Positions 14,130 through 51,656 are shown, counted from the first letter of the stretch. The stretch: DNA of 64,000 nt from an uncultured Candidatus Poseidoniales archaeon (GCA_964647665.1 CAZYIX010000001.1:115606-179605); one strand, 5' to 3'. Notes: generated by a model from the letters alone, not told the origin. A program made the numbers and translations.

Positions 14130-14174
14130 AAATAGAGCGGAACATTGTATGGCTGTCTAGTTCACTGACCCCCC

Positions 14175-14531: not shown

Positions 14532-14532
14532 C

Positions 14533-23044: not shown

Positions 23045-23102
23045 GAGAAGGCGAGCATACATTTGATTCAAGTAATGGAGCAGAATCGAAAGGTCGGTGC
23101 GC

Positions 23103-25238: not shown

Positions 25239-25241
25239 TAG

Positions 25242-32097: not shown

Positions 32098-33270
32098 TCA
32101 ATCGAAGCGTTGAACACCGAATCGACCGCCGCGCTGTTCTCTAGCGATATTGAGGGCTTGGCCGAGAATATCTGGCTCCATTTCCCCTTCGACTATTCGG
32201 TCGCCCGCAACTCCAGTGATGATTGCCATCACCTTGATTGTATCACCAAATCCGGGGTCTTGCCTTGCACCGAAAATGACGTTTGCATCTGGAGACAGTC
32301 GCGCAGTCATCAGTTCGACGACCTGACTTGCCTGTTCGAGAGTCATGTATGGCCCTCCGGTAACATGGATGAGAGCACCGGTTGCTCCGTCGATATCTAT
32401 GTCGAGAAGTGGATGATTGAGTGACTCATGAACGACTTCTTCTGGTCCCCGGTCGCTCTCACCGTACAGCATCATGGTGATGCCTCCTCCACTCATGATG
32501 GTGCGAACGTCAGCGAAGTCGAGATTGATGAGACTGGGCAGAGTGATAGTTTCGACAATTCCCTTGACGATTTCCGCGATGAGTTGGTCCATGATGCTGA
32601 ATGCCTCGTCAAGAGGCAAGTTTGGCACATAATGCAGCAGGCGATTGTTGTCAAGAACCAATACAGCGTCAACCGCTTGGCGAAGCAATTCGAGCCCTTC
32701 TAGAGCGCGTCGCATACGTTGGCGCCGTTCAACATGGAATGGAGTAGTGACTACAGCGACGACCAATGCTCCTCCTCGCTTGGCTTCCTCAGCGACTACC
32801 GGCGCGATGCCAGTGCCGGTTCCACCGCCAAGTCCAGCGGTGATGAAGACCAAATCAGCACCATTGACAATCTTCGAAATGACATCTCGACCGGCTTCCG
32901 CACAACGTCGTCCGGTCGAAGGGTCGCCACCCGCACCGAGTCCTCTGGTGATGTGGCGGCCGACCAGCAACTTCTGCATCGCTCGAGTGTGGTCAAGATG
33001 CTGTTTGTCGGTATTGATTGCTACAGTGATTGCACCCTCGACACCAAGATGGGTAATCCGATTCATCGTGTTGTTACCAGAACCGCCGCATCCGCAAATC
33101 AAAATTCTCGGATTTGGAACCCCAAAATTGCCCATTTCATCGTCGAGAAGTGCGGTGGGCTGTTTCTCATCCATGTCTCGCTTCAACTCCGCAACAAGGT
33201 CACCATACGCCCCTCCCGACGTGGCATCTGTATCCTGCTCCCCATCCATGGTCATACCTGCAAGGTCCAA
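32098..33270 (-). CDS. ftsZ: Cell division GTPase FtsZ
   Basis: Tubulin signature GLGGGTGTG (GGGTGTG) and ICGCGGSGNNTMNRI N-terminal nucleotide-binding segment; acidic N-terminal extension. Confidence 0.9.
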   Translation of the reverse strand: MDLAGMTMDGEQDTDATSGGAYGDLVAELKRDMDEKQPTALLDDEMGNFGVPNPRILICGCGGSGNNTMNRITHLGVEGAITVAINTDKQHLDHTRAMQKLLVGRHITRGLGAGGDPSTGRRCAEAGRDVISKIVNGADLVFITAGLGGGTGTGIAPVVAEEAKRGGALVVAVVTTPFHVERRQRMRRALEGLELLRQAVDAVLVLDNNRLLHYVPNLPLDEAFSIMDQLIAEIVKGIVETITLPSLINLDFADVRTIMSGGGITMMLYGESDRGPEEVVHESLNHPLLDIDIDGATGALIHVTGGPYMTLEQASQVVELMTARLSPDANVIFGARQDPGFGDTIKVMAIITGVAGDRIVEGEMEPDILGQALNIAREQRGGRFGVQRFD

Positions 33271-33426: not shown

Positions 33427-33531
33427 CCGAGCGTAGCATAGCCTGGCTAATGCACCTGACTGTAGACTGTGAAAACACGGTTGTGGAAGGCAGCCATCAG
33501 GGGATCGCTGGTTCAAATCCGGCCGCTCGGA
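33427..33531 (+). tRNA. tRNA-Tyr (anticodon GUA) with ~30-nt intron at the canonical 37/38 position
   Basis: Read directly. Acceptor CCGAGCG/CGCTCGG. D-arm GCAT-AGCCTGGCTA-ATGC. Anticodon stem CCTGA...TCAGG enclosing CTGTAG + 30 nt + A. T-arm GCTGG-TTCAAAT-CCGGC with discriminator A. The 3' half overlaps the end of the opposite-strand CDS 33497..34003. Confidence 0.55.
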
Positions 33532-34003
33532 CCTTCTTACCTTCAGCGCGCGAACGCAGCGCTGCGAGCCGAGTTTTCAAATCTGGAATCTCTAGTGGCT
33601 CATGTAAGCAGGTGCGACAACTATCGATGAGATAGCCGTTTGAGAGTGCCCTTCTGCCGATGATTAGTCGATGTTTCATTCGGCTTCTGTCGGCTAGAGT
33701 AAACTCGACGGACATTTTGCGGCCTCCTAGCCACAAGTCGGTCTGGATTGTCGGCCGCAACGTAACGTGACCTCCTGAGTCCTTGACCCGCCTCCATCCG
33801 GTGAGTGGAGCAAGGATTGGAGTACCCCCAACATCGAGGCGGAATCTAACCCACATTCCTTCGCAGGTTTCCAGTGGTTCCACATTGAGTGCGTGTAGGG
33901 AACAGGTATTGGCTCCTGAGTCCAACTTTGCATATAGCCGGTGGATGCCAAGGTCTGGTACTGCTATCCATTCGCGCCAGCCAACTATCGTCTGCATGTC
34001 CAT
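33497..34003 (-). CDS. Retropepsin-like aspartic protease (PF05618 'putative ATP-dependent zinc protease'/RimB-like)
   Basis: GWREWIAVPDLGIHRLYAKLDSGANTCSLHA matches the PF05618 core, including the DSGA catalytic motif. The last ~11 codons overlap the tRNA-Tyr gene. Confidence 0.6.
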   Translation of the reverse strand: MDMQTIVGWREWIAVPDLGIHRLYAKLDSGANTCSLHALNVEPLETCEGMWVRFRLDVGGTPILAPLTGWRRVKDSGGHVTLRPTIQTDLWLGGRKMSVEFTLADRSRMKHRLIIGRRALSNGYLIDSCRTCLHEPLEIPDLKTRLAALRSRAEGKKVRAAGFEPAIP

Positions 34004-36349: not shown

Positions 36350-38935
36350 ATGGGCGACCTTCAAAGGTGGATTGAGCAAGCCGCGTCCATGCCTCGCGCT
36401 GCGCGTGCCTCAGCACTCGCCGTTGTTCTGTTGTTGTCAATGCTCACAGCATCTGCTATTACGGTGGCTGACACTTCTGCAAGAGCCACCGCTTGTGCAG
36501 AGACAGATGTGGACGAGTTGCCGGGTTTGTTCAACGTTCTCGACCAAGGTTGCCATCAGATTGACCTTGGATATCTGACCCCCGGACAGATTGTGGAATT
36601 CGACATTTCTGCCGATGATTCATTCGATTTTCTAGTTTTCAATTCAAATGCTCTTACAGTCTACACCAACGACCAATCATACCGAGATAATGCATACTGG
36701 GAAGAGGATACTGTATTCGAGTCCTTGAGCGGCAATGCTCGTTGGCATTGGGCAGTCCCCGAAACCTCTGAGATGAGATGGTATGTCATCCTAGACAACC
36801 TCGATCACCCAGGTGATGATGACCAAGGCGACCTCGGAGGCCTCACAGTAGCAATCGATGTCAACATCAGTTTTCCATCGCAAGGAATTTGGGCGGTTCA
36901 CGACAATTTGGTCCGTCTTGGCATTAACGACCACCAACAGTTGCTTGGACCGAGTGTGCTGACTCTCGATGGTGGAACTCAAGTCTCTATTGAGGCCATT
37001 GCCTTGCAAGGCGAGCCTGACCTATTCATACTGACAGCTGCTCAGCGAGACACCTACCTTGCTGGTAATGGTGCACAGTTTCGGGTCAGTGGCGCGGACC
37101 TATTCTCAATCACGGCAGACGGTTCTGTAGCATGGACTGTGCCGTCGGAACACTCCGGTGAAGGTGTGTATCTATTTGCAGACAATGAGGATGGGCCTAC
37201 TGGCGGCGGTGATGGGGATAGCGATGCTGCAGTTACCGTCATGGTGACTTTGTTACCAGTGATTTCAGCGACCATCGATGACGACTTGCAAGGTGACTTG
37301 GATGTTGGAGATGTTGCGACGGTCACCGCGAATAACACCCCCAATTTGTCGCAACAGGTAGACGAGGATGCATACGAATGGGATTTGGACGCTGATGGAG
37401 AGATTGATGCAACCGGCGCATGGGCCGACGTATCTTTCGACACCCCCGGAGACCATGTTGTCACACTGAAGGTCGCTGGGGTGGACGGGCGTACCGACTC
37501 TACCGACCATACGATTTCAGTCAAGGACCAGACCGGACCCACCGCAATCATCAGTGGTAGCGATGACCTTATTCGGGGCTTTGGTGAGACGTTTAGCCTG
37601 TCCAGCAATTCACAGGATAATTGGATGATTGACCGTGAGGAATGGTGGGTGGATGGCTCACTATTCCAGCAGGACAACGGCACCCAGAATACCTTCACTC
37701 ACTCTTTCAGCGTGGGCGGTGCTCATCACATTGAGTTGAAGGTCTACGATGGAGAATCACTGTTTGACAATGACACTGCCATGGTTACTATTCAGGACAC
37801 TACCAGACCAATCGTAGGTTCAATCGAAGGCCCAAGTGAATTGACCGCAGGTGATAGTGGAACATGGAGCCTGCAGGCTAACGATGGAGAATCAGCCACC
37901 CTCTCATGGTCATGGGACTTCGACAAGGATGACGGTGCTAACGATATGGATGCTACTGGCTCTCAGGCAACTTGGACCTTTAGCAAGGCTGGCAATTATT
38001 GGATAACCTGTACGGTGACAAATGAGGAAAACATCTCCACTCCTACTGAAATGTTGGTTGTCGTCAAGGCGGCCCCATCTTCTGGACTTGGAGCCGGCAT
38101 AGATTTCGCCGGGCCAGCTTTCGCATTATTGTTGGTAATCGGCCTCGCTGTCGGCGGATTCTTCGGATGGCGGCGTTGGCGCGATGCACAGGCTCTCAAA
38201 GTATTGGCAAATGAGGAAATAGCTCGGATTACTGCCGAGCAGGAATCCACTCAAGAACCGACGCAGGAGGAGCAGTTGTCTATGTTCGCGCCCGCTGGTT
38301 CCCGTGTCGTTTCCAGTCGTTCGGGTGCAGAGACTGAGATGGCAGAAATCGCCGGTGCTGGCTATGGCGCATCAGAAGCAGTAGAGAGTGCAGCAATGCT
38401 TGGTGTTCAGACTCAGGTGAGTGATGGCGATTCAGAACTTCTCGCCGCCTTCGATGAGCCTGAAATCAAGCCGGAACCCGCAGTAACACCGGTACAGAAG
38501 GCAGCGGCGCAAGAGCCTGCGCCGGTCGCCGAAAAGCCGGCTGCTGGAGGGGCGACCGTTATCTCCAGTGGAATCGAACTCCCATCAGTGATGAAGCAGG
38601 CAGTTGAGACACCCGCTGAAGTTGCAGCGGCGGCACCTGCACCGGCACCAGAACCTGCCGTAGAGCCTGCGCCAGCACCCGCACCGGCACCAGCCGTTGA
38701 GTCCACACAGCCTACTCCCGCACCTGCCCCCACACCAACCGCAGAACCAACACCCGCACCTACTCCCGTTGCAGAACCAACACCCGCACCCGCAGCAGTG
38801 GCAGAGGGTACTATCGAGGTGATTGGCGCATGTGCCTCATGCGGACAGCGATACGCTGTGGATATGCCAAGTTCAATCAATGAGGCCAGAATAGATTGTC
38901 CGAAGTGTGGTTCTCGCAACAATATCCACAGATGA
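36350..38935 (+). CDS. Large surface protein: signal peptide, PKD domains, single TM, cytoplasmic Pro/Ala-rich linker and C-terminal C4 zinc ribbon
   Basis: Signal peptide (ARASALAVVLLLSMLTASA). PKD motifs (YEWDLDADGEID...HVVTLKV; WSWDFDKDDGANDMDATG...YWITCTVTNEEN). TM FALLLVIGLAVGGFFGW + RRWR. PAPAPEPAVEPAPAPAPAP linker. C-terminal CASCGQRY-x17-CPKCGSRN. Confidence 0.7.
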   Translation: MGDLQRWIEQAASMPRAARASALAVVLLLSMLTASAITVADTSARATACAETDVDELPGLFNVLDQGCHQIDLGYLTPGQIVEFDISADDSFDFLVFNSNALTVYTNDQSYRDNAYWEEDTVFESLSGNARWHWAVPETSEMRWYVILDNLDHPGDDDQGDLGGLTVAIDVNISFPSQGIWAVHDNLVRLGINDHQQLLGPSVLTLDGGTQVSIEAIALQGEPDLFILTAAQRDTYLAGNGAQFRVSGADLFSITADGSVAWTVPSEHSGEGVYLFADNEDGPTGGGDGDSDAAVTVMVTLLPVISATIDDDLQGDLDVGDVATVTANNTPNLSQQVDEDAYEWDLDADGEIDATGAWADVSFDTPGDHVVTLKVAGVDGRTDSTDHTISVKDQTGPTAIISGSDDLIRGFGETFSLSSNSQDNWMIDREEWWVDGSLFQQDNGTQNTFTHSFSVGGAHHIELKVYDGESLFDNDTAMVTIQDTTRPIVGSIEGPSELTAGDSGTWSLQANDGESATLSWSWDFDKDDGANDMDATGSQATWTFSKAGNYWITCTVTNEENISTPTEMLVVVKAAPSSGLGAGIDFAGPAFALLLVIGLAVGGFFGWRRWRDAQALKVLANEEIARITAEQESTQEPTQEEQLSMFAPAGSRVVSSRSGAETEMAEIAGAGYGASEAVESAAMLGVQTQVSDGDSELLAAFDEPEIKPEPAVTPVQKAAAQEPAPVAEKPAAGGATVISSGIELPSVMKQAVETPAEVAAAAPAPAPEPAVEPAPAPAPAPAVESTQPTPAPAPTPTAEPTPAPTPVAEPTPAPAAVAEGTIEVIGACASCGQRYAVDMPSSINEARIDCPKCGSRNNIHR
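38741..38800 (+). repeat. 30-nt tandem direct repeat (2 copies) inside the Pro/Ala-rich linker coding region
   Basis: gcagaaccaacacccgcacc occurs at 38741 and 38771 with a 30-nt period (encodes AEPTPAPxxV twice). Confidence 0.5.
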
Positions 38936-39025: not shown

Positions 39026-42000
39026 ATGGGCGAAGCCGCTGCACGAATGGTCCTCGCTGCACCCGAAAGGCGCAGCGTAAACGGGTTGTGGATTGCAGTA
39101 TTGCTCGTCTTGCCATTAATTGCTCCTTTTTCTGCCGCAGAAGCGGCAGATTCGGTCCGAGCCGACGATTTCGGCATCATCGAGGAATTGCATACCGTGC
39201 TGAATCAGCGGGGACAGTTGCTAGACAGTGAACAGGTGCGGCTGATTGCAGAAGGGCAACTCGCTCCAGTAAAGAACGGAGTTCGTCCTGCTGGTTCGTC
39301 CGATGCGCTTGCTAACGTCGACGAAATTTTCACTGGGATTTCGATGAGAGAATCAGTACAGGCAGACCCGATTCATCCTGCTCCGTTCCAGATACTGCTT
39401 GGAGATGAAGACGTTGCACCCGGATGGGTTGACAACGTTTGGGAGACACTCATCAACATCACTGACTACGTGATCTGGGTCCAGTTCCAAACTGAAGATG
39501 ATGGCCCTCGCCACGATTCTTTCACTACTGTGACCTTCTCTGCCTCTTTGTTCAGCCTATTCAGCGGAGACCCAATGATTCATGACGTGGATGTCGATGG
39601 TGATGGTGATGACGATGTTCGTATTGGCATCAGCATCTCTTGGGATCAAAATAATGGGTGGGGGCTATCAGGAGATGAGATTCTTCCGACTCAGTTGTGG
39701 ATAGAGCCAACCATCCAATATCAGGTCGACGTAATCGATGATTCGGACCCGATGTGGGGTGTTATGGAATTCCTGCATGTTTCATTGCTCAAATCATTTG
39801 CATATTCTTCTAACCCCTTTGAACCCGGTGAGTCCTATGTTTGGGTCATCGATTCAAATTTTACAATTCCTCCAACTGATTGGTCGCTAGACATTGGCTT
39901 CGACAGATTCTGGTTTGACCTCGGTGATTCAGCCCAATCGTTCATTCTCGCATTAACGGGAGGCATCTTTGGCGGAATTCCTGATGAGGGCGACATAACC
40001 GTCGCTGCCCTTGCAGCGCCATATACAGTACAGATTGAGAATTGGGGACAGACAAACTGTCCTGATGACTACGATCCAATGGCCGACCACGGCGCCGGGT
40101 CATTGGACCACCGCTGCCGTATTGGAGTCGGATTCGGCTACGCTCACTTTTCCCCACCAGATGGCGGCGATCGCGAATTATGGGAGCTGGCCTACATTGA
40201 GATGGCCCTGCATCCAGTGGTCAATTCAACACGCCTACCCGCTGAGGTAGACGTTACAATCCGTAACGACAACCTGCTCTCAACTGGTCCTAGCGACATT
40301 GGTGAGAAGAGTCTCACCTCCATCGAGTATTACGCAGACCGTCGCTGCGACATGTGGATTCACTTCCATGAGGACCGAAGCAACTACACGGAAAGTGCTG
40401 GTCAAGAATATGGCAATATCACCGAATCTATTGGCTGGCTGCGTGACCTTCCGTCTGGTACACTGACCAATGAAGAAATATCTCGTACTTTCCGTATGCT
40501 CGGCTCAGAAAGCAGCCCGGCGTTGCCGGGGCAGTTGCCGAGTCGACTTTCCTTTATCCTCGGAATCAAAAATTTCACCCGCGACACAACCCCCAATGTC
40601 GATGACCCTACCCTGCCGGTCAACCCCGCACATCCGCCGAATACACTGTTGTTAGTACGCTCAACCCAACCGGTTGGGAGCGTAGACTACGTTTCTTACT
40701 TCCAACGAGAGGGAGTATCTGCAGACCATCGGCTTTTGACGGTACATGTGGAGGATATTCCAACCGGACTTGTGTTATACGGTGATTTCTGGCTCGGTGG
40801 TTCAGATGATGGAGAAGTATCGACGGATACCTCTGACCTCGATTTTTTCTCTAGAATGATTGATTTCACAATTCTTGCGGTAGTCGACATTTTCCTCGAT
40901 GTGTCCAACACAATCAATGGCATTCCTAGTTCAATTGTCGATGTGATTGGTGGAAGTGCCGGTACCAGTGCAGTGGGGATGAGTGTCAATCTTGAGATGT
41001 ATACCTCATTCGAGTCTGACAGAATTCCTATGGCTTTGGGACAGGCGGACATGTCGCTTGGCTCCAGTGTGCATCCGGTGGCTACTGGAGATCACCTACT
41101 GCTCGCCAACAACACCCAATTCAATACCGTGGTGGGTAGGCATGGGCAGACTGAGCCGTTGGTTCCAATTTCAGTTAGTCTGAGCATTTCTGGCCTAAAG
41201 GCTGCTCATCTGGTCGATGATACCGATACTAATGAACAACGAGTTCAGATTACGATGAATGGCGGAGCACCGATGCGGATGCTATTCCTAGAACACGAAG
41301 GTACCGACCTTGCCAATTCTGACTTCCAAATTGTGCGGATATCGAATATGCCATCCAACCTTGCGGTGATATCTACTCCAACCACCATCACTTACAATTC
41401 GGTTGGAATCCCTGAGATTGTTTACTGTGGTAAAGAAGGCAACATCAGACAGGCGGTAGTACTGGAATCGATGCCGGGTGAATTCACCATGACTGTTTCT
41501 GATGACATTTCTTGGGCCTCAGAACAGCCAATTGGGTCCATTACGATGATGATTTCCGATTCAAGCCAGCCACGAACAATGGATGGTGATCACTTCTTAT
41601 TCGCCCGTGATTCGAATTCTGACAGCATTACACTCTCTACCCGGATGACCGGACTTCGTGAAATTGGCTACATCTCTGCTGCTCAACCGGGAATTCCCGG
41701 ACCCGACGGTCGAGGAACTGCATATCTGGTCGGACCGGGTAATCGCACCTTCTCTGCGGTTGTCATCGATGAAGTTGATCATGATTCAGTAGCAGACGGA
41801 TTGAACGCACACGTCTTGCTCGACCCGATGCCAGGCACTGTTTCACTTGAAGTTCCTGAGAGTTCAACAGGATCGAGCATAGATGTGCCTGAATTCACCA
41901 CCGAAGGTGGTTTGGCAGGTGTTGCATTCTTCCTCGGTGGATTCACCGGCTTTGGAGACAGTGTCAATAAGATGCTTGGGGACCTTGTTACCAGCGTAAC

Positions 42001-43372
42001 TGGAGGCAATGGAAGCGATGCTGCAGACCAGTTGTCATTTGGCATGCAACTAGCTGCTGATAGTGCATTTGATCTCGTCGTCGATGCATCCCAGGGCAGT
42101 ATGGGCTTGAATGAGCCAGAATGGGTACATGGCCTATCTATCACCGCAGAGGAAGCACCAGACAATCACACCGGCTTCCATCTTCGCGGTTGGCTGCCAG
42201 AAATGCCACCAGCAATTGACGTGTCCATAGGTTACCAGAACCTCTCTGTCACCGAACAATGGGATGTCAGCGTCAACATGGTAGGGTGGGAGCCAGCGAG
42301 GCCAGAATTCATCCTACAAGTTGACGGTTATCAGGGTCAAGATTTGCATATGACAATGCTTGGATTTGATACCGGAAAACCCACCGATATAAGCATTGAT
42401 ACACAGACAACAATCGACTTCCGCTCAGTCATTCCTCAACTAACTGTAGTTAGCCAATATGAGTTGAGTCAACGGCTCGGTGCTGTGCATGCAACTTACC
42501 TAGACCGTGAGGCTCAAACTCGCTACGAGATGTTGGTACAAAACATTCCCAAACACATTGACATCGCCTCCTCGCTGGGCTCTACCATCTCGATTGGAAT
42601 GTCAGTGCCAGAGGAGGACAGAGCGGCTGGGCTTGCTCTGGATTCGATGATGATCGAGATGACCTCCTTTTCCGAAGGAATGTGGTGGCCTGCTACAGTT
42701 TTCTTGCATGAATTGCCTGGTGAGATGAATCTGACAATGGAATCTTCAGATATTTTCGATATTACCAAGGAACTTTCCTTCCAAGGCATGCCCACGCTTT
42801 CTTATTCATCCAGTGGTGAGGGCATGGATATGTTCATTTCAACAGCTGGGCGAGCGATTAACTCCAAGGGCGACACTCTGCTGATGGCAGAGAATCTAGC
42901 CAGCCATATGAGTATTGAGCCAACCGAAGACTTCGGTCTGAGGGTGCGTAGCAGTGGTGATGGCATTGGCCGACTATACCTGCGCCAGACCGATATGCCG
43001 ATGCAACCGGGAATCCGGTTAGTACAGATGGAAGCTGTCGGTGAAAATCTGAAAAGCGCGACAATTCACTCCTATACACTCGGTGGCGTCTATCCCATCA
43101 TAGAAATCAGTGATGTCAAAGGTGGCCGAATGATTGCTACCGCTCGAGCCGATGTTAACCTCGGGTCGTGGACGTTAGATGGTCGCGCTGTCCTCATTGA
43201 TGCGCAAGCAACCAGTGGTATTCCAACCGGTTCCACAGTTTCGATGAATGGTGTGGCTGCTGACCTTTCCCTGCTCAATGTGCTTGGGTTTGACGGTTCG
43301 AGCACCCACTATTTGCTTCCGGAACCACTAACCAGCGGCCTTGCGACCGGAATCGCAACTTTGTTTTGGTGA
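39026..43372 (+). CDS. Giant secreted protein (1448 aa), no recognisable domain
   Basis: ATG start and N-terminal signal-like segment (GLWIAVLLVLPLIAPFSAAEAADS). Acidic Thr/Ser/Asp-rich composition, uninterrupted 4.3-kb ORF, no catalytic motif recognised. Confidence 0.7.
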   Translation: MGEAAARMVLAAPERRSVNGLWIAVLLVLPLIAPFSAAEAADSVRADDFGIIEELHTVLNQRGQLLDSEQVRLIAEGQLAPVKNGVRPAGSSDALANVDEIFTGISMRESVQADPIHPAPFQILLGDEDVAPGWVDNVWETLINITDYVIWVQFQTEDDGPRHDSFTTVTFSASLFSLFSGDPMIHDVDVDGDGDDDVRIGISISWDQNNGWGLSGDEILPTQLWIEPTIQYQVDVIDDSDPMWGVMEFLHVSLLKSFAYSSNPFEPGESYVWVIDSNFTIPPTDWSLDIGFDRFWFDLGDSAQSFILALTGGIFGGIPDEGDITVAALAAPYTVQIENWGQTNCPDDYDPMADHGAGSLDHRCRIGVGFGYAHFSPPDGGDRELWELAYIEMALHPVVNSTRLPAEVDVTIRNDNLLSTGPSDIGEKSLTSIEYYADRRCDMWIHFHEDRSNYTESAGQEYGNITESIGWLRDLPSGTLTNEEISRTFRMLGSESSPALPGQLPSRLSFILGIKNFTRDTTPNVDDPTLPVNPAHPPNTLLLVRSTQPVGSVDYVSYFQREGVSADHRLLTVHVEDIPTGLVLYGDFWLGGSDDGEVSTDTSDLDFFSRMIDFTILAVVDIFLDVSNTINGIPSSIVDVIGGSAGTSAVGMSVNLEMYTSFESDRIPMALGQADMSLGSSVHPVATGDHLLLANNTQFNTVVGRHGQTEPLVPISVSLSISGLKAAHLVDDTDTNEQRVQITMNGGAPMRMLFLEHEGTDLANSDFQIVRISNMPSNLAVISTPTTITYNSVGIPEIVYCGKEGNIRQAVVLESMPGEFTMTVSDDISWASEQPIGSITMMISDSSQPRTMDGDHFLFARDSNSDSITLSTRMTGLREIGYISAAQPGIPGPDGRGTAYLVGPGNRTFSAVVIDEVDHDSVADGLNAHVLLDPMPGTVSLEVPESSTGSSIDVPEFTTEGGLAGVAFFLGGFTGFGDSVNKMLGDLVTSVTGGNGSDAADQLSFGMQLAADSAFDLVVDASQGSMGLNEPEWVHGLSITAEEAPDNHTGFHLRGWLPEMPPAIDVSIGYQNLSVTEQWDVSVNMVGWEPARPEFILQVDGYQGQDLHMTMLGFDTGKPTDISIDTQTTIDFRSVIPQLTVVSQYELSQRLGAVHATYLDREAQTRYEMLVQNIPKHIDIASSLGSTISIGMSVPEEDRAAGLALDSMMIEMTSFSEGMWWPATVFLHELPGEMNLTMESSDIFDITKELSFQGMPTLSYSSSGEGMDMFISTAGRAINSKGDTLLMAENLASHMSIEPTEDFGLRVRSSGDGIGRLYLRQTDMPMQPGIRLVQMEAVGENLKSATIHSYTLGGVYPIIEISDVKGGRMIATARADVNLGSWTLDGRAVLIDAQATSGIPTGSTVSMNGVAADLSLLNVLGFDGSSTHYLLPEPLTSGLATGIATLFW

Positions 43373-43377
43373 AAATC

Positions 43378-44067
43378 ATGTCTGACGAGGAAGATATTGA
43401 AGGCATGTTCACTTTGGTGGGCTCACCTGATAATCCCGACCTTGAGGAGTCAGATTTGTCCGATAGTCCTACCCTGACCGACCGGGCTGAACAGATTTCT
43501 GAAGAAAAGAAACAGGAGATCACTCACGACGAGGGTTTTACCGCATCAATCGAGGAAATCGAACTCGCTGAGAAGGCTCTAGAGACCGCTAGGTTGGTTG
43601 CCCGGCAGGTCACTCCATTCCGGGTTATTCTCGCTACAGTTTTCATGGCTGCGTTGATGTTCAGCGTCTTCGCCATTGGTTTCTGGGCAGTGCCCAGAGA
43701 TGCGGTTTCAGTCGAGGTGGCTTATCTTCAGGGTGGCCCCGGTCAGGTCGTGCTGCTGCAAGTGCACAACTTGGGTAGCCGAGGTATTGGCAGCGTCAAT
43801 GTTGAGGCTGAGTTCCAAACTCTAGATGGAGAAGTACTGAATTCCACTCGTTTTACGCGTAGTTCCATTCCTGCTCACACCTCTGTTGCTGGTGATGATC
43901 TTGAGATAATGGTCTCAGGAGTTTCTGTTTGGGATGAGTACATCATTGTCGTGAGATTAGAATACGATTACTATGATGGCTCAGTTGAGGAGCAATCGTG
44001 GAGATATCAGGTCGGTGAATGGTCTAGTGAGCATTTCACTTTGAAAGCCGACCGACACTGGTTCTGA
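43378..44067 (+). CDS. Type II (N-in) single-pass membrane protein with CARDB-like ectodomain, coupled to giant gene
   Basis: Acidic cytoplasmic N-terminus, TM (VILATVFMAALMFSVFAIGFWAV), and a ~140-aa C-terminal domain with VHNLGSRGIGSV CARDB-like motif. Start is 5 nt after the upstream stop (track TTG 43366 overlaps it). Confidence 0.5.
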   Translation: MSDEEDIEGMFTLVGSPDNPDLEESDLSDSPTLTDRAEQISEEKKQEITHDEGFTASIEEIELAEKALETARLVARQVTPFRVILATVFMAALMFSVFAIGFWAVPRDAVSVEVAYLQGGPGQVVLLQVHNLGSRGIGSVNVEAEFQTLDGEVLNSTRFTRSSIPAHTSVAGDDLEIMVSGVSVWDEYIIVVRLEYDYYDGSVEEQSWRYQVGEWSSEHFTLKADRHWF

Positions 44068-44145: not shown

Positions 44146-47100
44146 ATGAGGAAGTCAATATTGCTGATGACGCTGTCGATTTTGTTGTTGGCTAGCCTAT
44201 CTCCGCTGCTTACTCAGCCAACTGAGTCATACGGTTCTACTGCGATTGATGATGATTCTCGCAGCGTTGAGAGAGTATCAATTCCGGCTGTCGCTGATGC
44301 AATCAGTGATATTGAGCATTCGCAGTTATTACTGGGCGTCGAGATATCTCGCCAATCCAACGCAGACACCCACCTCGGAATGTGGACGACAAGTGGCCTT
44401 TCCTCAAACATGGACATTCCAACGCAACTCCGTTTACCACGTAATGACATCGCCTTGGCCATAGTTGATGGTGACGTAGGATTGTGGGATGCTCGCAGTT
44501 CTCTGTCAGAGGTTTCTGGGCTTGAGGTGCGTGCCCACATCCCCCCATCTGGGTTCTTGCTGCAAGGGTCTGCCCAGTCGCTAGAAGCAGCAAGAGGTGC
44601 TGAAGGTGTGCTGTCAGTCCATGCCGTGCCTTTGGCATTCATGCTCGATAGTGAATTGATTGAGATGTACATCGATGCACAATCAGTTGTCAGTTCTGGC
44701 CTCGCTGAAGGCGGCGAGCCGGTGACCTCGGTCAGGATGCATGGTTGGCGCCTCGCTGAGACAGCAATGCCACTCGACCATCTTTCTCTGTCAGGATACA
44801 ATTTCGACCTCGATGCGAGAGCAGATGAACTGCTCATCGACCATCGCGATATTGACAATGGACGTCACGATGGTCTGCTTCGACTCGTTGACCTACCAGC
44901 CGCGGCAGCCTCTCCATCGCTCTCATGGCTGAGCCTTGAGCCGGTTTGGATGCCACATAACAACGAAGCCTTCGAGAATATCCACGCCGATGACGTGGAG
45001 AATTTCTTTCTCACTGGCCTGAATGGCTCTGGACAACTGGTAGCGGTTGCAGATTCAGGAATAGACCGTGACCATGGCGACTTCGGCCAGCGAATTCAGC
45101 ACGTAGAATCGGTTACTTGGGGCGACTCAAGCACTGAAGATACCCACTCAGGTCATGGAACTCACGTGGCCTGCACGGTTCTCGGTGACGGCTTCAGAGG
45201 AGCATATGCCGGAATAGCTCCACAGGCGGAACTGTGGTTCCAAGCCATGGAAGATGACTCTACTGGTGATTTCAGTGGAGCGAGCATGGACTACATGCTG
45301 CGGACTGCTTACGAAGGCGGGGCTCACATTCACACAAATTCATGGGGCGCTCACCAGAATTACGGTGAATACACCTCTAGCAGTGAGGACGTCGACAGCA
45401 GGACCAGCCAGTATGACCAATACTGGTCCTACGATGGTTTGGTAGTGTTGGCTTCGGCTGGAAATGATGGACCTGATTCTGACACAGTGTCTCCTCCTGC
45501 AACAGCAAAGAATGTCATCGCAGTTGCCAACACTCACAATCGCGGCGGCGGCGCCCCTGACACTCTATCGCAGAGCAGTAGCCGCGGCCCTACCGATGAT
45601 GGCCGCATCAAGCCAGACGTTTCTGCCCCGGGCGCTTGGGTTCGCTCATGTCGTTCACAAGATGCGACAGAAACTTCTGGAGCATCATGGTCTAGTCAGT
45701 GGTATCTGGAATACTCCGGCACTTCGATGGCCGCTCCCAACGCGGCAGGCGCAGCCACCTTGATTCGCGAATACCTGACTGAAGTTGCAGGCCGCCCATC
45801 ACCACAGGGCGCTCTAATCAAGGCGATGTTGATTCTTGGCGCTGAGGATATTGGTAGCAGAAATATCCCGAATAACGACGAAGGATGGGGTCTGATTAAT
45901 TTGGCAAATTCACTGTTGCCCGGCTCAGATACCGGAGTTTGGGTAGCAGACCGTTACTATGTGCGCTCAGGCAATACCGAGGAGTTCCTGTTCAATGTCT
46001 CTCGCAGCAACACACCGTTCAAGGTGGTGCTAGCATGGTCAGATTATCAGGGGAATTCATGGGCCAGCAAGCAGTTGCAGAACGACCTTGATTTGGTGGT
46101 AATTGCCCCCGATGGTACCGAATACTTGGGTAATGACTTCTCGAGCGGTCGTTCGACTACCGGTGGAACTAGAGATTCGACCAATAACGTCGAGGTCACG
46201 TTGGTCGACAATGCAGACATGGGCATTTGGACTGTCCGAGTGACCGATGTCAGTCACGGTGGCCAGCGTAGTGAGCAGTCGTTTGCAGTTGCAGTTCGTG
46301 GCGCAGGAGTCAACGACCTGCGCAGTGACCCCCTACCTCTTGCCGAAACCTTCACCCTCTCAACTGAGATTCCTCAAGTCAACGATGTGACCACAATCTC
46401 CATCCAAATTCAGAATCAAGGTGGTGGTCCTGCCAATGGGTTGCCGGTACAGGCAATAGCAGGCGGTCAGAACCTCGGAGAAGTCACCCTTGAACTCGGC
46501 CCCGGCATGATTCGTTGGGCAACATGGGATTGGACTCCAATTACAGAGGGAGAGCAGGCAATCACCATCCGAGTCGACCCATATGATGTAGTATCTGAAA
46601 TTGATGAAGCCAACAACCTATTCCAGACAACAGTTGCAGTCAGCGCTCCGGGTGTGCGCATTTCGACTGATGAAACCACCAAACGTCTCGTTGACCCATC
46701 GACGACCAGTACGTCTTGGGATTTTGTTCTGAAAAACACTGCTTTACTGCCGACAAACGCCAGTGTTTCAGCGACGAAACCAGTATTCCTCACTACCGGA
46801 CAGGAAATGACTTCCTGGTTCACTTCGTTTAATCTCACTACTTTCCAACTGAACGGTTCTGAGGAGTCGAGAGTCGGTTTCACGCTTGTGCACTCATCTC
46901 CTACTTCGCCCCCGTCTCCTGGATATTACCAATTCACAGTTACAGCGATGGACGTTGACAATAATGTTGCATTCCCTCTAACGTTGACTCTCGATGTACC
47001 AGTACTACCTGACGTCTCATTCCAAATGCCATTCACCACCCTTTCCGTTTCACCGGTTTACCCGACCGAATTCACTGTTGAAATCCTCAACGATGGCAAT

Positions 47101-48816
47101 GGAATGCAGGGCTACAACCTGTATCTAGATGGTCCTGTTGGATGGCGACTGGGCCTCGATGAACTTGGGACTACAGAAGGAGCTTCATCGGGCTCAACCG
47201 GCTCAATCCCGGTCTCGGGAACCAGAGCAGTGGCAATGACCCTGTATCCCCCTGCCTATCCTGCATCAGCAGGGCAATCACTGGTCTCACAGATGCGTGT
47301 AATCAGTCAGATGGACCCTGATTCTCAATGGGTGCTCGAGATTCCAATGGAGGTATCTCTACACGAGCAGATTGAGATGGAAATAGATATCGAGTATGGT
47401 GTACTACGCCCAGATTCAGTTCTTACTCTACAATACTCAATCACTAATATCGGCAACGCAGATATGACTCTGCATCCCGACTTGAATGACAGGCCGGGTG
47501 GCTGGGATGTGACTGCTGGAAGTGGCTCGTTCACAGTGCCTGTTGGAGAATCACGAGCCTACCTGATTAACCTCGAAGGCAATGGATATGCGGTTGGTGG
47601 AGAGATGAATTTCCACTTATCGACAATTAATGGCTACCGTTACACATGGCACGGGTCCATGGAAGTCACCGCACCTCCGCAACCAAGCCTCTCCTTCTGG
47701 TCAGTTAGAATTGGTGATGGAGAGGAAGCCATAGGAGACCCATATGGCGCGGGTGAGCACCCTCCTGGTGCTCCTGGTGTAACATTTTCATGGTTGATCG
47801 GAAATACTGGCAGTGAGCCTTGGACTCCTAGCGTGGATTTGGAACATCCTGTTGGCTTGGATTGGTTCAAGGCGTGCGATATCCCCGGCGAGGTCATTCC
47901 TGACGAATCGGTCATCGTCGCATGTTCGTTATTTATTCCACCTGATACCGTAGCCGGTAGTCAGCCAGAGATTACTTTCACGATGAATATCGATGGCTTG
48001 TTGCTCAGTGATACTCTTACTCTGTATGTTGCAGCAAATCCGATTGTGGTTTGGCGGCCACTTTCACTTGATGAATTCACAGAAGGTAAGCAAGGTGAAG
48101 TTATGCTTTCAATCGAGAATATCGGCAATACGCAGATTTCCGAAATGGTGGTGATTGATGCCCCTGAAGATTGGAAGGCCGAAGTTGATGGTAGCCCCGC
48201 TTTGACTCTGAACATCGGTGAGACTCGAAATGTACGGCTGCTGATTACTCCAGCAGATGTCGGTGAGCACAGCTTGTTAGTCAGCATCGGAGAGGATGGT
48301 GATATCGCAGATGCTGTCCATTCGATAACAGTCAACGTAAATCGCGACGTGAATAGTAACAGCGGTAGTGGTTCTGCCCTAACTGTCGCCGCGTTTATTT
48401 TGTTTGTACTAGTCATTGTAGGAGCGGTGCTTTCCGTGCTTTTGTTTATCCCACGAAAGCAAGAAACTAGTCCCTCGAAAAATATGGCTGCAGCGACCAT
48501 GCCGCCACCATTGAATGCACCAGCAGCACTTGCCACCTCCACCACCTCTACAACCTCCACCACCACCACATCCTCCGCAACCTCCGCAGCACCCGCTACG
48601 GTTGCTTCAGCAGCAGAGAAGAAGCAGGCAACTGCGCCCGCTGTTATTTGCTGGGGTTGCAATAAAAACATCACAGGTCCACGCCGTGCTTGCCCATCTT
48701 GTGGAGCACGGTATCACGCCGAAATCTCAGACTGTGCGGGGGATAAATTGGATGAATGCAAGAACTGTGGTGACAGTGCAGACGAGTTCGTCGATGAGGA
48801 AGGGGAGGGTGATTGA
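44146..48816 (+). CDS. Giant subtilisin-like serine protease (S8) with multiple CARDB-like domains, TM helix, Ser/Thr-rich cytoplasmic linker and C-terminal double zinc ribbon
   Basis: Signal peptide (SILLMTLSILLLASLSPLLT). Catalytic triad motifs VAVADSGIDRDHGDF (Asp), HGTHVACTV (His), GTSMAAPNAAGAATL (Ser). Repeated NxGxxxA CARDB motifs. TM (LTVAAFILFVLVIVGAVLSVLLFIP). TSTTSTTSTTTT linker. CWGCNK-x8-CPSCG...C-x6-CKNCG, then an acidic end. Confidence 0.85.
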   Translation: MRKSILLMTLSILLLASLSPLLTQPTESYGSTAIDDDSRSVERVSIPAVADAISDIEHSQLLLGVEISRQSNADTHLGMWTTSGLSSNMDIPTQLRLPRNDIALAIVDGDVGLWDARSSLSEVSGLEVRAHIPPSGFLLQGSAQSLEAARGAEGVLSVHAVPLAFMLDSELIEMYIDAQSVVSSGLAEGGEPVTSVRMHGWRLAETAMPLDHLSLSGYNFDLDARADELLIDHRDIDNGRHDGLLRLVDLPAAAASPSLSWLSLEPVWMPHNNEAFENIHADDVENFFLTGLNGSGQLVAVADSGIDRDHGDFGQRIQHVESVTWGDSSTEDTHSGHGTHVACTVLGDGFRGAYAGIAPQAELWFQAMEDDSTGDFSGASMDYMLRTAYEGGAHIHTNSWGAHQNYGEYTSSSEDVDSRTSQYDQYWSYDGLVVLASAGNDGPDSDTVSPPATAKNVIAVANTHNRGGGAPDTLSQSSSRGPTDDGRIKPDVSAPGAWVRSCRSQDATETSGASWSSQWYLEYSGTSMAAPNAAGAATLIREYLTEVAGRPSPQGALIKAMLILGAEDIGSRNIPNNDEGWGLINLANSLLPGSDTGVWVADRYYVRSGNTEEFLFNVSRSNTPFKVVLAWSDYQGNSWASKQLQNDLDLVVIAPDGTEYLGNDFSSGRSTTGGTRDSTNNVEVTLVDNADMGIWTVRVTDVSHGGQRSEQSFAVAVRGAGVNDLRSDPLPLAETFTLSTEIPQVNDVTTISIQIQNQGGGPANGLPVQAIAGGQNLGEVTLELGPGMIRWATWDWTPITEGEQAITIRVDPYDVVSEIDEANNLFQTTVAVSAPGVRISTDETTKRLVDPSTTSTSWDFVLKNTALLPTNASVSATKPVFLTTGQEMTSWFTSFNLTTFQLNGSEESRVGFTLVHSSPTSPPSPGYYQFTVTAMDVDNNVAFPLTLTLDVPVLPDVSFQMPFTTLSVSPVYPTEFTVEILNDGNGMQGYNLYLDGPVGWRLGLDELGTTEGASSGSTGSIPVSGTRAVAMTLYPPAYPASAGQSLVSQMRVISQMDPDSQWVLEIPMEVSLHEQIEMEIDIEYGVLRPDSVLTLQYSITNIGNADMTLHPDLNDRPGGWDVTAGSGSFTVPVGESRAYLINLEGNGYAVGGEMNFHLSTINGYRYTWHGSMEVTAPPQPSLSFWSVRIGDGEEAIGDPYGAGEHPPGAPGVTFSWLIGNTGSEPWTPSVDLEHPVGLDWFKACDIPGEVIPDESVIVACSLFIPPDTVAGSQPEITFTMNIDGLLLSDTLTLYVAANPIVVWRPLSLDEFTEGKQGEVMLSIENIGNTQISEMVVIDAPEDWKAEVDGSPALTLNIGETRNVRLLITPADVGEHSLLVSIGEDGDIADAVHSITVNVNRDVNSNSGSGSALTVAAFILFVLVIVGAVLSVLLFIPRKQETSPSKNMAAATMPPPLNAPAALATSTTSTTSTTTTSSATSAAPATVASAAEKKQATAPAVICWGCNKNITGPRRACPSCGARYHAEISDCAGDKLDECKNCGDSADEFVDEEGEGD

Positions 48817-51656
48817 TGGCATATTCTAGTCAACGAGCATCTGCATTCCTGCGCGCAGGCGGCCTTTTGAGTAAAGCGTGGTGTCCGTCTATTATGCGCA
48901 GGCGTACGCGAAGCCGAGCAGTATTACTCTCCGCCTTGCTTCTACTGCTTCTCGCAGCTCCTTTCAGCGCACCTACGGTGGCTGCTGATGGTCGTGATGC
49001 CAGCGTTTCTCTGTACACAGACTCGACTGGCAAGGAGGCTTCACCGGGAACTCCGGCAGAGTATACAATCACCGTGTACAACGATGGCGATGTCGATATC
49101 ACAGTGCAGTTGAGTACTCAGGAGGATGCCGGTGGCTGCCAAGGGTGGTCAAGTTCTATCGAACAGGTACAGAGTCAGCCAATTGCACCAAGTTCATCCG
49201 AGCAGGTTACCTTGACAGTCAATGTTACTGAAGGGGAGCAGACCTCCGATGAGTGCGACACCACCGTGTTAGCGACAGCCAACAACGCTGAACCCGGTTC
49301 ACCGGGACCCCCAGCACAGGCAGATGTTACTGTTACCACCACCAAAACCGAAGGTAGTGGTAATGCAGTATATGGGGTCGAGTTGTCAACTTCTACCGCT
49401 ACCAAAACCTACAACGGCGAAGATACAGTTGAGTGGACAGTCACTGTGAAAAATACCGGTCAAGCGCAGGCTCAAATTTCTATTGATATGACTGATTCAG
49501 CCTCCTGTCGTTCCGATGGGCTCACCGCCAGTGTTGACCCACAGACCATGACACTGCAGAGTGACGAGGACGAGCAAGCAACAGTCAGTGTTCCGGTTCC
49601 AAACGGAGACCAGACCGAGGCGGGCAGCCACTGTTTCATTGTACATGCCACGGTAACCAATGACCCCAATCAGCAGAATCAGGCTCAGGACAACCTCTCT
49701 ATCACACTCAACATTCCCGAATTACATGAATGCGATTCCTCACTCGCTTCAAATAGCATGAGTTTGGACCCGGGTGAATCGGCCTCAAACTCGTTCAACC
49801 TCGATAATACAGGCAATAGTGACTGGACTGTTACATTCGGGACTAACGGCCAAAAGGCATCTTGGGTCGACTCATCAACAAGTAGTAGGCTGCTTCCATA
49901 CAACAATGGTAACGGAGCAACATCATTCACATTCTCAGTAACTGCTGATGATAGTTTGCCGGCGAATGAACAGACTATCATCAAAATACAAGCCCTCGAT
50001 GGCAATAGCCTGCGTTGTGAATCGACTCTGACAGTAGTCGTAGGCCAATCTCACGGTGCTACTGCCAGCCTGTCTAGTCAGACGCTGTCAAGGGTTGACC
50101 CCGGCTCCTCTGATTCAACCTCATTGACGATTACCAATACAGGCAATGGGGCAGAGACCTACAGTGTCGGCACCTTTGGCTCACCCGCCGGATGGGGAGT
50201 CAGTGTTGAGGAGAGTTCGGTTACCTTGCAGGGTAAACATTCGCCACAGAATGAGCGACAGACATCGATGTATGTCAGCGTCTACGTTCCTGAAGACGCT
50301 TTGGCAGATGAGGAAGTAACAGTCACCATCACAATTAGTGATAGCAGCGGTGGAACCACCTATGCGACGGTTGAACTCAGCGTCACAGTGGCAGAGCGTC
50401 ATGAGATGTCAACCACGGTGCTTTCCGTCGACCAAACTGGGCGCAGCGACTCGATTATTCAGTTCCCGTTCACAGTTGATAACACAGGTAACGTACAGGA
50501 TTCGTTCCGCCTCCGTGCCTGTGACCCCAGTCAGCCCAGCGGTTGTATCTCTCCACCTTGGCCGACTCGCTTCGTCGATGGCACCGGACAAGAAATTCAG
50601 AATTTGGTGATTGGTTCTGGAGAATCTGACACCGCTTACCTTGAGGTCAGTGTTCCGAGTGAAAATGAAGCGGGTGAGGGCGACTACCTTCAGGTGAACA
50701 TCAAGGTCACAATCGTCGATGCACCTTCAGTGGATCATCAGCAGATGGTGACTGCACGTGTATCGAATTACGAATACATGATGCAACTTGTTCTCGCCAA
50801 CCCACAGGGTGCTCCTGACGCTACCAGCGCGGTATTACCTCCAGGTGGCTCGGTTACATTCTCCATGTTGGTCAGTGATGTAGGTACTTCACCTTACATC
50901 GAGAACGCGTTGTTCACTTCAAATGGCATGGAATCAACCATCTCACGTGATCTTGAGATTGAAGGAATGACATACCAATTCTCGGGTCTGCCTTTCGAAG
51001 TCTCCGATGACAGCATGGTCTACCAAGTGAATATCACTCTAGCTGTTCTTGAGGGAGTTGCAAACGGTGCCGATGGCATCGTACACATTTGTGCCTCATC
51101 GATGCGAAACACCGCGAGCCCCTCGTGTGTGAGTATCTCAATGACTGTACAAACACTGCATCAACTCAGTGTGGATGTTGAGGGTGGGCCAATACACAAT
51201 ACGACCCACCCCGCCTTCGCTGATTACATCGTAATCATCAGCAACGATGGCAATGTGGATGAGACTGTCGTAATCACTACTACCGATGGACTGCGCGGCT
51301 GGACAATCGACCTCAACGAGACCGAAGTCGACATCGCTGCAGGTGAGGAAGCCTCGGTTCGCGTTCGTGTGAAGCCACCTCACGAAATGTCTGTGGATGA
51401 CAGTTTTGAGTTCACTTTGACAGTCGCTCCTAAGGACGAACCAGTTGCATCCCAACCAATCGACTTGACGGTGAATGCCGAGATGGATAACAGTCTGTTT
51501 GGCTTGACTAATTCTGTAATTGACATCATTTCTTACGTCATTCTTGCAGTCATAGGTATTCTGATCATTATCACCCTTCTTAACAATCGTCGTCGAAGCG
51601 AGATTTGGTCCGACGAAGAGGAATTAGAAGAAGATGAGGAATTCGACGAAGACTGA
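48816..51656 (+). CDS. Large surface protein of tandem CARDB-like (NxGN) domains with C-terminal TM anchor and acidic cytoplasmic tail
   Basis: Signal peptide after a basic RRRTRSR N-region. At least 7 repeats of the VxNxGN motif (YNDGDVD, KNTGQAQA, DNTGNSDW, TNTGNGAE, DNTGNVQD, SDVGTSPY, SNDGNVDE). TM (VIDIISYVILAVIGILIIITLL) then EEELEEDEEFDED tail. Start ATG overlaps the upstream stop (TGATG); track TTG 48813. Confidence 0.7.
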   Translation: MAYSSQRASAFLRAGGLLSKAWCPSIMRRRTRSRAVLLSALLLLLLAAPFSAPTVAADGRDASVSLYTDSTGKEASPGTPAEYTITVYNDGDVDITVQLSTQEDAGGCQGWSSSIEQVQSQPIAPSSSEQVTLTVNVTEGEQTSDECDTTVLATANNAEPGSPGPPAQADVTVTTTKTEGSGNAVYGVELSTSTATKTYNGEDTVEWTVTVKNTGQAQAQISIDMTDSASCRSDGLTASVDPQTMTLQSDEDEQATVSVPVPNGDQTEAGSHCFIVHATVTNDPNQQNQAQDNLSITLNIPELHECDSSLASNSMSLDPGESASNSFNLDNTGNSDWTVTFGTNGQKASWVDSSTSSRLLPYNNGNGATSFTFSVTADDSLPANEQTIIKIQALDGNSLRCESTLTVVVGQSHGATASLSSQTLSRVDPGSSDSTSLTITNTGNGAETYSVGTFGSPAGWGVSVEESSVTLQGKHSPQNERQTSMYVSVYVPEDALADEEVTVTITISDSSGGTTYATVELSVTVAERHEMSTTVLSVDQTGRSDSIIQFPFTVDNTGNVQDSFRLRACDPSQPSGCISPPWPTRFVDGTGQEIQNLVIGSGESDTAYLEVSVPSENEAGEGDYLQVNIKVTIVDAPSVDHQQMVTARVSNYEYMMQLVLANPQGAPDATSAVLPPGGSVTFSMLVSDVGTSPYIENALFTSNGMESTISRDLEIEGMTYQFSGLPFEVSDDSMVYQVNITLAVLEGVANGADGIVHICASSMRNTASPSCVSISMTVQTLHQLSVDVEGGPIHNTTHPAFADYIVIISNDGNVDETVVITTTDGLRGWTIDLNETEVDIAAGEEASVRVRVKPPHEMSVDDSFEFTLTVAPKDEPVASQPIDLTVNAEMDNSLFGLTNSVIDIISYVILAVIGILIIITLLNNRRRSEIWSDEEELEEDEEFDED

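Follow-up and report, generated by a model that had tools for sequence, protein, structure and literature searches.

BIG and SMALL are two adjacent genes in a 64,000-nucleotide (nt) stretch of DNA from an uncultured Candidatus Poseidoniales archaeon (GCA_964647665.1 CAZYIX010000001.1:115606-179605), hereafter the window, in which all positions are counted from the first letter. Both are genuine genes of a Marine Group II archaeon (Poseidoniales), and together they constitute a previously undescribed gene pair, of which BIG founds a new protein family. Their function is inferred, and the reading towards which we tentatively lean is that the two products form a stoichiometric cell-envelope complex, in which a secreted scaffold, BIG, is docked to its membrane partner, SMALL, via the invariant C-terminal tail of BIG. 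The pair is probably a core envelope component of the Poseidoniia, and it is possible that the complex forms a true surface layer (S-layer) lattice. The two open reading frames (ORFs) and the signal that links them are as follows.

39026..43372, + strand: BIG, a 1448 amino acid (aa) predicted secreted all-beta protein of an unannotated family (ORF; no Pfam, NCBIfam or PDB match; AlphaFold)

43368..43372, + strand: Shine-Dalgarno-like GGTGA for SMALL, spanning the BIG stop codon (sequence)

43378..44067, + strand: SMALL, a 229 aa predicted type II (N-terminus inside, N-in) membrane protein (ORF; AlphaFold, mean predicted local distance difference test, pLDDT, 70)

The 3' end of BIG reads ...ACT TTG TTT TGG TGA, with the stop codon at 43370-43372, and a spacer of 5 nt (AAATC) separates it from the ATG of SMALL at 43378. 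An alternative in-frame TTG at 43366, which overlaps the BIG stop, would extend SMALL to 233 aa, but the aligned homologues begin M-A-K-x-D-E-E-I-E-G and the ATG is therefore the likely start. The original prediction had called both ORFs, their spacing and the overlap between the TTG and the stop, and the coordinates and the 5 nt gap are borne out. It had also called BIG the largest ORF, which it is not, as the adjoining subtilase ORF (44146-48816) is longer at 1556 aa, and it had placed the pair in an island. The latter description has to be abandoned because the region is bounded by housekeeping genes (PGK, HisRS, ftsZ and ribosomal protein L15e upstream, the nuo operon downstream), the base composition of the window is even and the gene order is kept across genomes; an island acquired by horizontal transfer is thereby ruled out.

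The tie between the two genes is strict. A scan of one genome per species located BIG relatives in 328 genomes, and 86 loci were examined, comprising the best 80 from the scan and six from assembly look-ups. SMALL lies directly 3' of BIG and on the same strand in all 82 loci with downstream DNA, the other 4 ending at a contig edge, so that the supposition that the pair is conserved as a unit holds without a single case of the genes failing to co-occur among these 82. A downstream start could be located in 71 loci, and in 65 of these SMALL begins between -4 and +11 nt from the BIG stop. The final codons of BIG (…G-G-[D]-stop) in related loci read GGAGGTGA or GGGGTGA, which is suitably spaced to serve SMALL as a Shine-Dalgarno sequence. 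The short gap and the position of this sequence within the end of BIG point to translational coupling of the two genes, which would yield matched amounts of the two proteins. Because the last codons of BIG double as the putative ribosome-binding site of SMALL, the extreme C-terminal residues of BIG are also constrained at the nucleotide level.

BIG has no Pfam match at E<=0.1, no NCBIfam match at E<=1 and no match among PDB sequences, whether the query is BIG alone or a profile of 63 sequences. Its initial description as domain-less is thus upheld by all three resources, and the remote-homology searches recovered no enzyme family. Full-length homologues (41-95% identity) occur only in Poseidoniales, and all named ones belong to Marine Group II (Poseidoniales, mostly Thalassarchaeaceae). 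The mean column identity is 55% and is even over the full length of the protein (63 sequences, down to 42% identity). As conservation is even throughout and the gene is apparently present once per genome, a hypervariable adhesin is ruled out. Three features stand out in the sequence.

39026..39145, + strand: predicted Sec-type signal peptide, residues 1-40, predicted cleavage AEA↓A (sequence reading)

39584..39619, + strand: acidic loop D-V-D-V-D-G-D-G-D-D-D-V, residues 187-198 (sequence; consensus DVDGDGDDD)

43214..43369, + strand: most conserved stretch and terminal signature of BIG (conservation profile; pLDDT 32-58)

The signal peptide, read from the sequence pattern and its conservation in homologues, consists of a basic n-region, a hydrophobic core at residues 20-38 and the AEA↓A site, which in homologues takes the form ...VEA↓TQ or VDA↓AQ followed by R-A-E-D-F-G. 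This conserved Sec form agrees with the earlier assignment of BIG as a secreted protein. No other segment of BIG qualifies as a membrane helix by Kyte-Doolittle (KD) hydropathy, KD values above 1.5 being reached only in the N-terminal segment and in one internal amphipathic helix. There are only four cysteines, of which C345 and C364 are invariant. The acidic loop at residues 187-198 resembles the calcium-binding DxDxDG motif.

The most conserved block of BIG in the conservation profile is formed by its C-terminal ~55 residues. They contain a terminal signature common to the family, in which H-x-[ILV]-x-P-[EDA]-P precedes 10-16 residues that are hydrophobic or threonine and almost never lysine or arginine; it is kept even in relatives of ~22% identity. 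The tail that follows the motif measures 10-17 residues in 126 of 149 motif-bearing proteins, 19-20 in a further 22 and 26 in one distant member, and in the window it stays below KD 1.5. The residues of BIG that are invariant across distant relatives are almost all proline, glycine, tryptophan or tyrosine.

Marine Group II shows no variation in a strand motif at residues 444-450 (window 40355-40375), W-I-H-F-H-E-D, which recalls the H-x-H zinc site found in alpha-carbonic anhydrases; strands neighbouring it carry further invariant histidine and glutamate residues (H374, H396 and E434). A family-wide metal or catalytic site is rejected since the distant relatives lack the motif, and by the same token it may be a lineage-specific metal site.

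An AlphaFold model of BIG residues 249-1448, built with the homologue alignment, has a pLDDT of 78 and a predicted template modelling (pTM) score of 0.62. As modelled, BIG is almost entirely an antiparallel beta-meander (51% strand, 10% helix) with 64 strands of at least 5 residues, which are mostly linked by tight turns. Foldseek comparison with solved structures revealed no global likeness to any known fold, and the structure prediction for which BIG had been singled out thus returned an all-beta protein with no counterpart at this level. The best matches are to the amphipathic beta-belt of ApoB100 (9bde_A, E 1.5e-5; 9ea7), followed by the outer-membrane barrels SusC, BtuB, LptD and CymA. 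Single-layer or amphipathic meander sheets are the only structural matches found, and like the ApoB100 beta-belt, OspA and outer-membrane barrel walls, BIG is modelled as long series of antiparallel strands, each of 8-16 residues, with tight turns between them. Of the 64 strands, 21 have faces that are more than 2.5 KD units apart, with L/I/V/M abundant on the hydrophobic side and S/D/T/E on the opposite side. The model also contains three helices and a duplication.

39923..39961, + strand: predicted hydrophobic/amphipathic helix 1, residues 300-312 (AlphaFold; pLDDT about 51-58)

40844..40951, + strand: predicted hydrophobic/amphipathic helix 2, residues 607-642, the only internal KD peak above 1.5 (pLDDT about 44-67)

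41033..41386, + strand: internal repeat copy 1, residues 670-787, with H-P-x-x-x-G-D-H-L-L-L-A (hhalign against copy 2)

41528..41866, + strand: internal repeat copy 2, residues 835-947, with T-M-D-G-D-H-F-L-F-A (hhalign against copy 1)

41912..42001, + strand: predicted Gly/Phe-rich hydrophobic helix 3, residues 963-992, GLAGVAFFLGGFTGFG... (pLDDT about 48-65)

The two repeat copies are the one internal duplication detectable when segments of the alignment are compared with hhalign (95% probability, E 3e-8). Helix 3 has the consensus GLxGxAFFxGGFxDLGRSVN, and the conserved Gly/Phe-rich segment at residues 962-977 (window 41909-41956, GLAGVAFFLGGFTGFG) has a composition like that of viral fusion peptides and is modelled as a helix of low confidence. 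At the C-terminus, residues 1397-1423 are disordered in the monomer model yet highly conserved, and are followed by a short terminal helix.

SMALL contains a single hydrophobic segment by hydropathy (residues 83-101) and an acidic N-terminal part, with aspartate and glutamate making up 18% of the whole protein. Its homologues occur only in Poseidoniales. AlphaFold predicts a poorly ordered acidic N-terminus with two helices, a membrane helix at residues 80-104 and an eight-stranded beta-sandwich at 110-223, and the N-in orientation is assigned because arginine residues precede the membrane helix. The regions of the protein are:

43378..43614, + strand: putative cytoplasmic acidic N-terminal region of SMALL, with the motifs described below (alignment)

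43615..43689, + strand: predicted membrane helix of SMALL (hydropathy, alignment, AlphaFold)

43690..44064, + strand: juxtamembrane V-P-R-[DT]-A-V and predicted immunoglobulin (Ig)-like eight-stranded ectodomain with an invariant A-H-T-S-x-A-G-D (alignment, AlphaFold)

Hydropathy, arginine placement and the model together support the topology first proposed for SMALL, a type II protein with an acidic cytoplasmic head and an extracellular beta-sandwich. The most conserved parts of the protein are the membrane helix, in which nine positions are invariant (V83, A86, M90, A91, L93, F98, A99, F102 and W103), the juxtamembrane V-P-R-D-A-V and a cytoplasmic peptide, E-G-M-[YF]-T-L-V-G-D-P-[DE]-N-P-D-L. 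The latter belongs to a pair of motifs at residues 8-25 (window 43399-43452), E-G-M-[YF]-[TS]-L-V-G-x-P-[DE]-[ND]-P-[DE]-L and then L-T-D-R. The acidic region around the peptide is otherwise variable, and the peptide has the appearance of a short linear motif for the binding of a cytosolic partner.

The ectodomain had been called CARDB-like, and only part of this assignment stands. A Foldseek search with the domain retrieves generic Ig-like sandwiches, namely ApaG, the Wzt C-terminal domain, the Kir cytoplasmic domain, FnIII and the TMEM106B luminal domain, with the CARDB structure 3idu at rank 37 (E 1.9e-3). SMALL of the window is not matched by Pfam CARDB (PF07705) at E<=0.1, nor is any of 34 family members at E<=1, and an hhalign comparison with the CARDB domain of the neighbouring subtilase and its orthologues reaches a probability of 52% over 28 columns that cover the V-x-V-x-N-x-G-s motif only. 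This strand-loop motif within a sandwich of 7-8 strands is what SMALL has in common with CARDB, DUF3426 and E-set domains. DUF3426 (PF11906) itself gives weak matches in five of the 34 members, all below threshold (best E 1e-3); DUF3426 proteins have the same layout as SMALL, with a cytoplasmic N-terminus, a membrane helix and a sandwich. Given the missing Pfam match, the short hhalign overlap and the low rank of CARDB, the modelled ectodomain is a generic Ig-like (E-set type) sandwich; the Ig-like fold and the one shared motif are retained, and a specific CARDB identity is not supported.

The family comprises about 240 clusters at 50% identity. An exhaustive profile search with BIG residues 369-1448 against 1.84 billion cluster representatives returned, at E<=1e-3, only 236 matches, of which many are fragments. 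Members of full length fall into size groups of ~1420-1470, ~1550, ~1240-1350 and ~1600-1840 aa. For six distant relatives, Pfam, NCBIfam and PDB sequence searches gave no match. A profile built from the distant relatives retrieved four proteins in a word-indexed homology search, and it is from these that the genomic context of the distant group was read.

In this group a BIG-like gene of 1780 aa, ~22-25% identical to BIG, is followed by a gene of 141-150 aa at a junction that is either a 4 nt overlap or a 14 nt gap. The product of the smaller gene has a membrane helix, a V-P-R-T-A sequence and a beta domain and is homologous to SMALL (hhalign 97.5%, E 7e-12), and it lacks the cytoplasmic N-terminal region with its motif. 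The pair is not flanked by a subtilase, an Ig-repeat protein or nuo; an S8 gene lies ~9 kilobases (kb) away beyond unrelated housekeeping genes, and ftsZ is divergent from the BIG-like gene across a spacer of ~78 nt (ftsZ 8841-9923 (-), BIG-like 10001-15349 (+)). The lineage is probably another Poseidoniia group, judging from the neighbouring L11 and FtsZ clusters, which are named 'Candidatus Poseidoniia archaeon'. Because it keeps the pair without the adjoining subtilase and Ig-repeat genes, BIG and SMALL are regarded as the ancient core unit, which Marine Group II has elaborated with the array of five genes described below and with the extended cytoplasmic head of SMALL.

The stoichiometric complex is favoured because BIG is predicted to be exported without an anchor of its own and SMALL is the only membrane partner made together with it. 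Contact at the membrane surface is proposed because the tail of BIG and the membrane helix and juxtamembrane motif of SMALL are the best-conserved elements of the two proteins. It is proposed that BIG is exported through Sec and that SMALL would then hold it at the outer face of the cytoplasmic membrane. The contact would be made through the C-terminal ~55 residues of BIG, which are predicted to be disordered alone and end in P-x-P and a hydrophobic helix too short to span a membrane; this tail may dock on the V-P-R-D-A motif and the Ig-like domain of SMALL, pack against its invariant membrane helix, or both. In Marine Group II the complex would work alongside three type I proteins, a PKD protein, an S8 subtilase and an Ig-repeat protein. 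The role of the complex would be structural and not catalytic, either as a scaffold of the envelope or as an anchored canopy resembling an S-layer, and this is preferred because the family-invariant residues are almost all proline, glycine, tryptophan or tyrosine and no similarity to an enzyme was found.

The closest functional analogy to this proposed complex is SlaA/SlaB of the Sulfolobales, to which there is no homology. SlaA is a beta-rich secreted protein of about 1400 aa without a membrane helix, and SlaB is anchored C-terminally and carries a long coiled-coil stalk. Like them, BIG and SMALL are encoded by adjacent, putatively co-expressed genes, the large beta-rich secreted subunit would have no membrane helix and the smaller subunit would be the sole anchor. 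Unlike SlaB, which has the opposite orientation, SMALL would have its anchor at the N-terminal end (type II), and its ectodomain is one small Ig-like domain.

Several observations weigh against a complex of this kind, and against an S-layer in particular. The ectodomain of SMALL comprises only ~125 residues, which would keep BIG close to the membrane, whereas long stalks are typical of known two-component S-layers. BIG is 42-60% identical over its whole length across a family-level spread, much more conserved than usual S-layer proteins, which are typically far less constrained. PDB sequence and Foldseek searches detected no similarity of sequence or fold between BIG and known S-layer proteins. 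N-glycosylation sequons are not enriched in BIG: 12.2 are observed where 9.7 would be expected, five of the sites are conserved, and the sequons N464 and N516 are invariant. The three low-confidence hydrophobic helices and the amphipathic strands of the model would also fit direct lipid contact without SMALL. Lastly, in the two samples, both of low coverage, that show signal in the part covered of a metatranscriptome table in the supplement of PMC9723583, BIG, SMALL and their neighbours have an average transcript coverage like that of nuo and about tenfold below that of ribosomal protein genes; coverage per million is 0.13 and 0.10 for BIG, 0.15-0.26 for nuo genes and 1.2-6.8 for ribosomal protein genes, and as far as these samples go this argues weakly against an abundant lattice protein (PMC9723583). 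The original suggestion of a structural or S-layer-like component with a membrane anchor thus survives as the most economical reading of the pair, while likeness to known S-layer proteins is missing and the transcripts are ordinary.

In Marine Group II the pair is embedded in an array whose order, PKD protein, BIG, SMALL, S8 subtilase, Ig-repeat protein and then nuoA, is invariant in every sufficiently long locus. The three flanking members of the array are type I membrane proteins by hydropathy:

36350..38935, + strand: PKD protein with signal peptide, PKD domains, membrane helix, Pro/Ala-rich cytoplasmic linker and C-terminal zinc ribbon (Pfam PKD_4 8e-14, hydropathy, synteny)

44146..48816, + strand: S8 subtilase with CARDB and NEW3 domains, membrane helix and cytoplasmic C4HC3 zinc-finger tail (Peptidase_S8 1e-43, CARDB 2e-17, synteny)

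48813..51656, + strand: Ig-like repeat protein with FixG_C, NEW3 and choice-of-anchor T matches, C-terminal membrane helix and acidic tail (domain matches, hydropathy, synteny)

The array gives rise to an alternative in which the pair belongs to a surface proteolysis machine: BIG would be the platform that captures or organises substrates for the membrane-anchored S8 subtilase, and the five genes would encode a feeding complex for high-molecular-weight protein. This is unlikely, for all that the invariant gene order accords with it. Marine Group II archaea have been described as protein degraders with extracellular S8 peptidases, which would suit such a machine (PMC6864105; PMC6461757). The argument from adjacency is weak because Marine Group II genomes are highly syntenic overall, and the array is equally 'linked' to nuoA. 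Moreover, the pair of the distant lineage stands alone beside ftsZ, with the S8 gene ~9 kb off behind housekeeping genes. A precedent for an envelope protein with a bound protease is tetrabrachion of Staphylothermus marinus, a coiled-coil stalk with arms to which the subtilisin-like protease STABLE is bound. BIG is likewise a very large putative envelope protein tied to a subtilisin-family protease, by genomic position where the tie of tetrabrachion is both genomic and physical, but it differs from tetrabrachion in being predominantly strand with little helix and in that the link to the protease is not kept in the distant lineage.

The flanking proteins have further features of their own. The zinc ribbon of the PKD protein, C-x2-C...C-x2-C (window 38800-38935), is conserved in 75 loci, and the tail of the subtilase, C-x2-C-x11-C-x2-C-x4-H-x6-C-x8-C-x2-C (window 48600-48816), has the C4HC3 spacing of PHD/RING fingers and is found in 49 loci. 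Cytosolic zinc fingers are unusual on extracellular proteases, and these tails suggest a connection between the inside and the outside of the cell. The TTG with which the Ig-repeat ORF is listed to begin overlaps the stop codon of the subtilase and puts ~35 extra residues ahead of a signal-peptide-like segment (window 48813-48900), so that translation probably starts further downstream. The pair has ftsZ as a recurring neighbour, which in Marine Group II is found on the opposite strand a few kb upstream (window 32098-33270 (-)).

A second alternative takes its cue from the fold. BIG could be a lipid-facing sheet protein that sits on or encloses lipid by means of the hydrophobic faces of its sheets and its amphipathic helices, and would then serve to coat a membrane, to handle lipid in a groove or to form part of a second outer layer. 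The ranking of the ApoB100 beta-belt and then outer-membrane barrels as the best structural matches, the 21 amphipathic strands and the three conserved hydrophobic helices, albeit modelled with low confidence, are all consistent with such a protein, which is nevertheless improbable. The strands are moderately amphipathic, as estimated from the sequence of the predicted strands, and their hydrophobic faces average about KD 1.5, which is judged nearer to a protein core than to a lipid-exposed barrel wall. The model does not superimpose globally on outer-membrane barrel or lipid-transfer groove proteins (LptD, BamA, TamB/AsmA, ApoB-like), and no second membrane is known for Marine Group II. The more specific proposal that BIG is a lipid-apposed beta-sheet protein, convergent with beta-belts and with outer-membrane barrel and groove proteins, and that together with SMALL it organises or supplies a second, lipid-containing outer layer in the Poseidoniia, is decidedly improbable.

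The C-terminus of BIG could also be a sorting signal, in which case its P-x-P and hydrophobic tail would be removed by an archaeosortase-like enzyme, BIG would become covalently attached to a lipid and SMALL would act as a chaperone or assembly factor or have another role. PEP-CTERM and PGF-CTERM signals, reportedly described by Haft and colleagues in 2012, bear a superficial likeness to the tail of BIG. As in the PEP-CTERM/exosortase and PGF-CTERM/archaeosortase systems, a proline motif and a hydrophobic stretch are found at the extreme C-terminus of BIG; this position is family-wide and invariable, with the P-[EDA]-P core 10-16 residues from the end. The details do not fit: in nearly all motif-bearing members the hydrophobic stretch spans only 10-16 residues, too short for a membrane helix, nearly all listed members lack a lysine or arginine after the motif and there is no basic cluster, and no NCBIfam C-terminal sorting model matches BIG at E<=1. 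No archaeosortase or exosortase gene was found among the window proteins scanned, nor was literature found that links an archaeosortase with Marine Group II, and little probability attaches to the idea.

It is very improbable that the pair acts with FtsZ-based division, for instance in remodelling the envelope where the cell divides or in marking it there. In favour are the divergence of the distant BIG-like gene and ftsZ from a spacer of about 78 nt, the position of ftsZ in Marine Group II, on the opposite strand and a few kb upstream, and the conserved cytoplasmic motif of SMALL in this group, which could bind a cytosolic partner. Against it, the argument is one of synteny only, the distant SMALL homologues lack that motif and unrelated housekeeping genes separate ftsZ from BIG in Marine Group II.

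Two features elsewhere in the window deserve mention. A tRNA gene of 105 nt, presumably intron-containing, is matched by Rfam at 33427-33531 (+) with 51 bits and was missed by ARAGORN; it overlaps the 3' end of a minus-strand ORF (33497-34003, Zn_protease family) as listed. An M14 carboxypeptidase (713 aa) is encoded directly 5' of an SNF-family sodium symporter (575 aa) at 23097-26969, and it is plausible that the two form a unit for the trimming of peptides and the subsequent uptake of amino acids.

Searches of the literature on S-layers, archaeosortases and envelope imaging in Marine Group II found nothing relevant, and no mention of BIG or SMALL was found in that on the genomics and transcription of the group. 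One published annotation table, in the supplement of PMC9723583, lists both genes as 'None' (PMC9723583). BIG founds a family with a distinctive C-terminal signature.

Marine Group II archaea are uncultured and among the most abundant archaea in surface oceans, and we know of nothing established about their cell envelope. As a single-copy, lineage-wide combination of a giant exported protein and a probable membrane partner, BIG and SMALL are the best current candidate for the core of this envelope. The pair is also a candidate for the main virus receptor, for the surface with which particles are contacted and for a surface antigen suited to cell sorting or enrichment. Should the lipid-apposed reading turn out to be true, the most abundant archaea of the surface ocean would have a more complex, diderm-like envelope than has been assumed.

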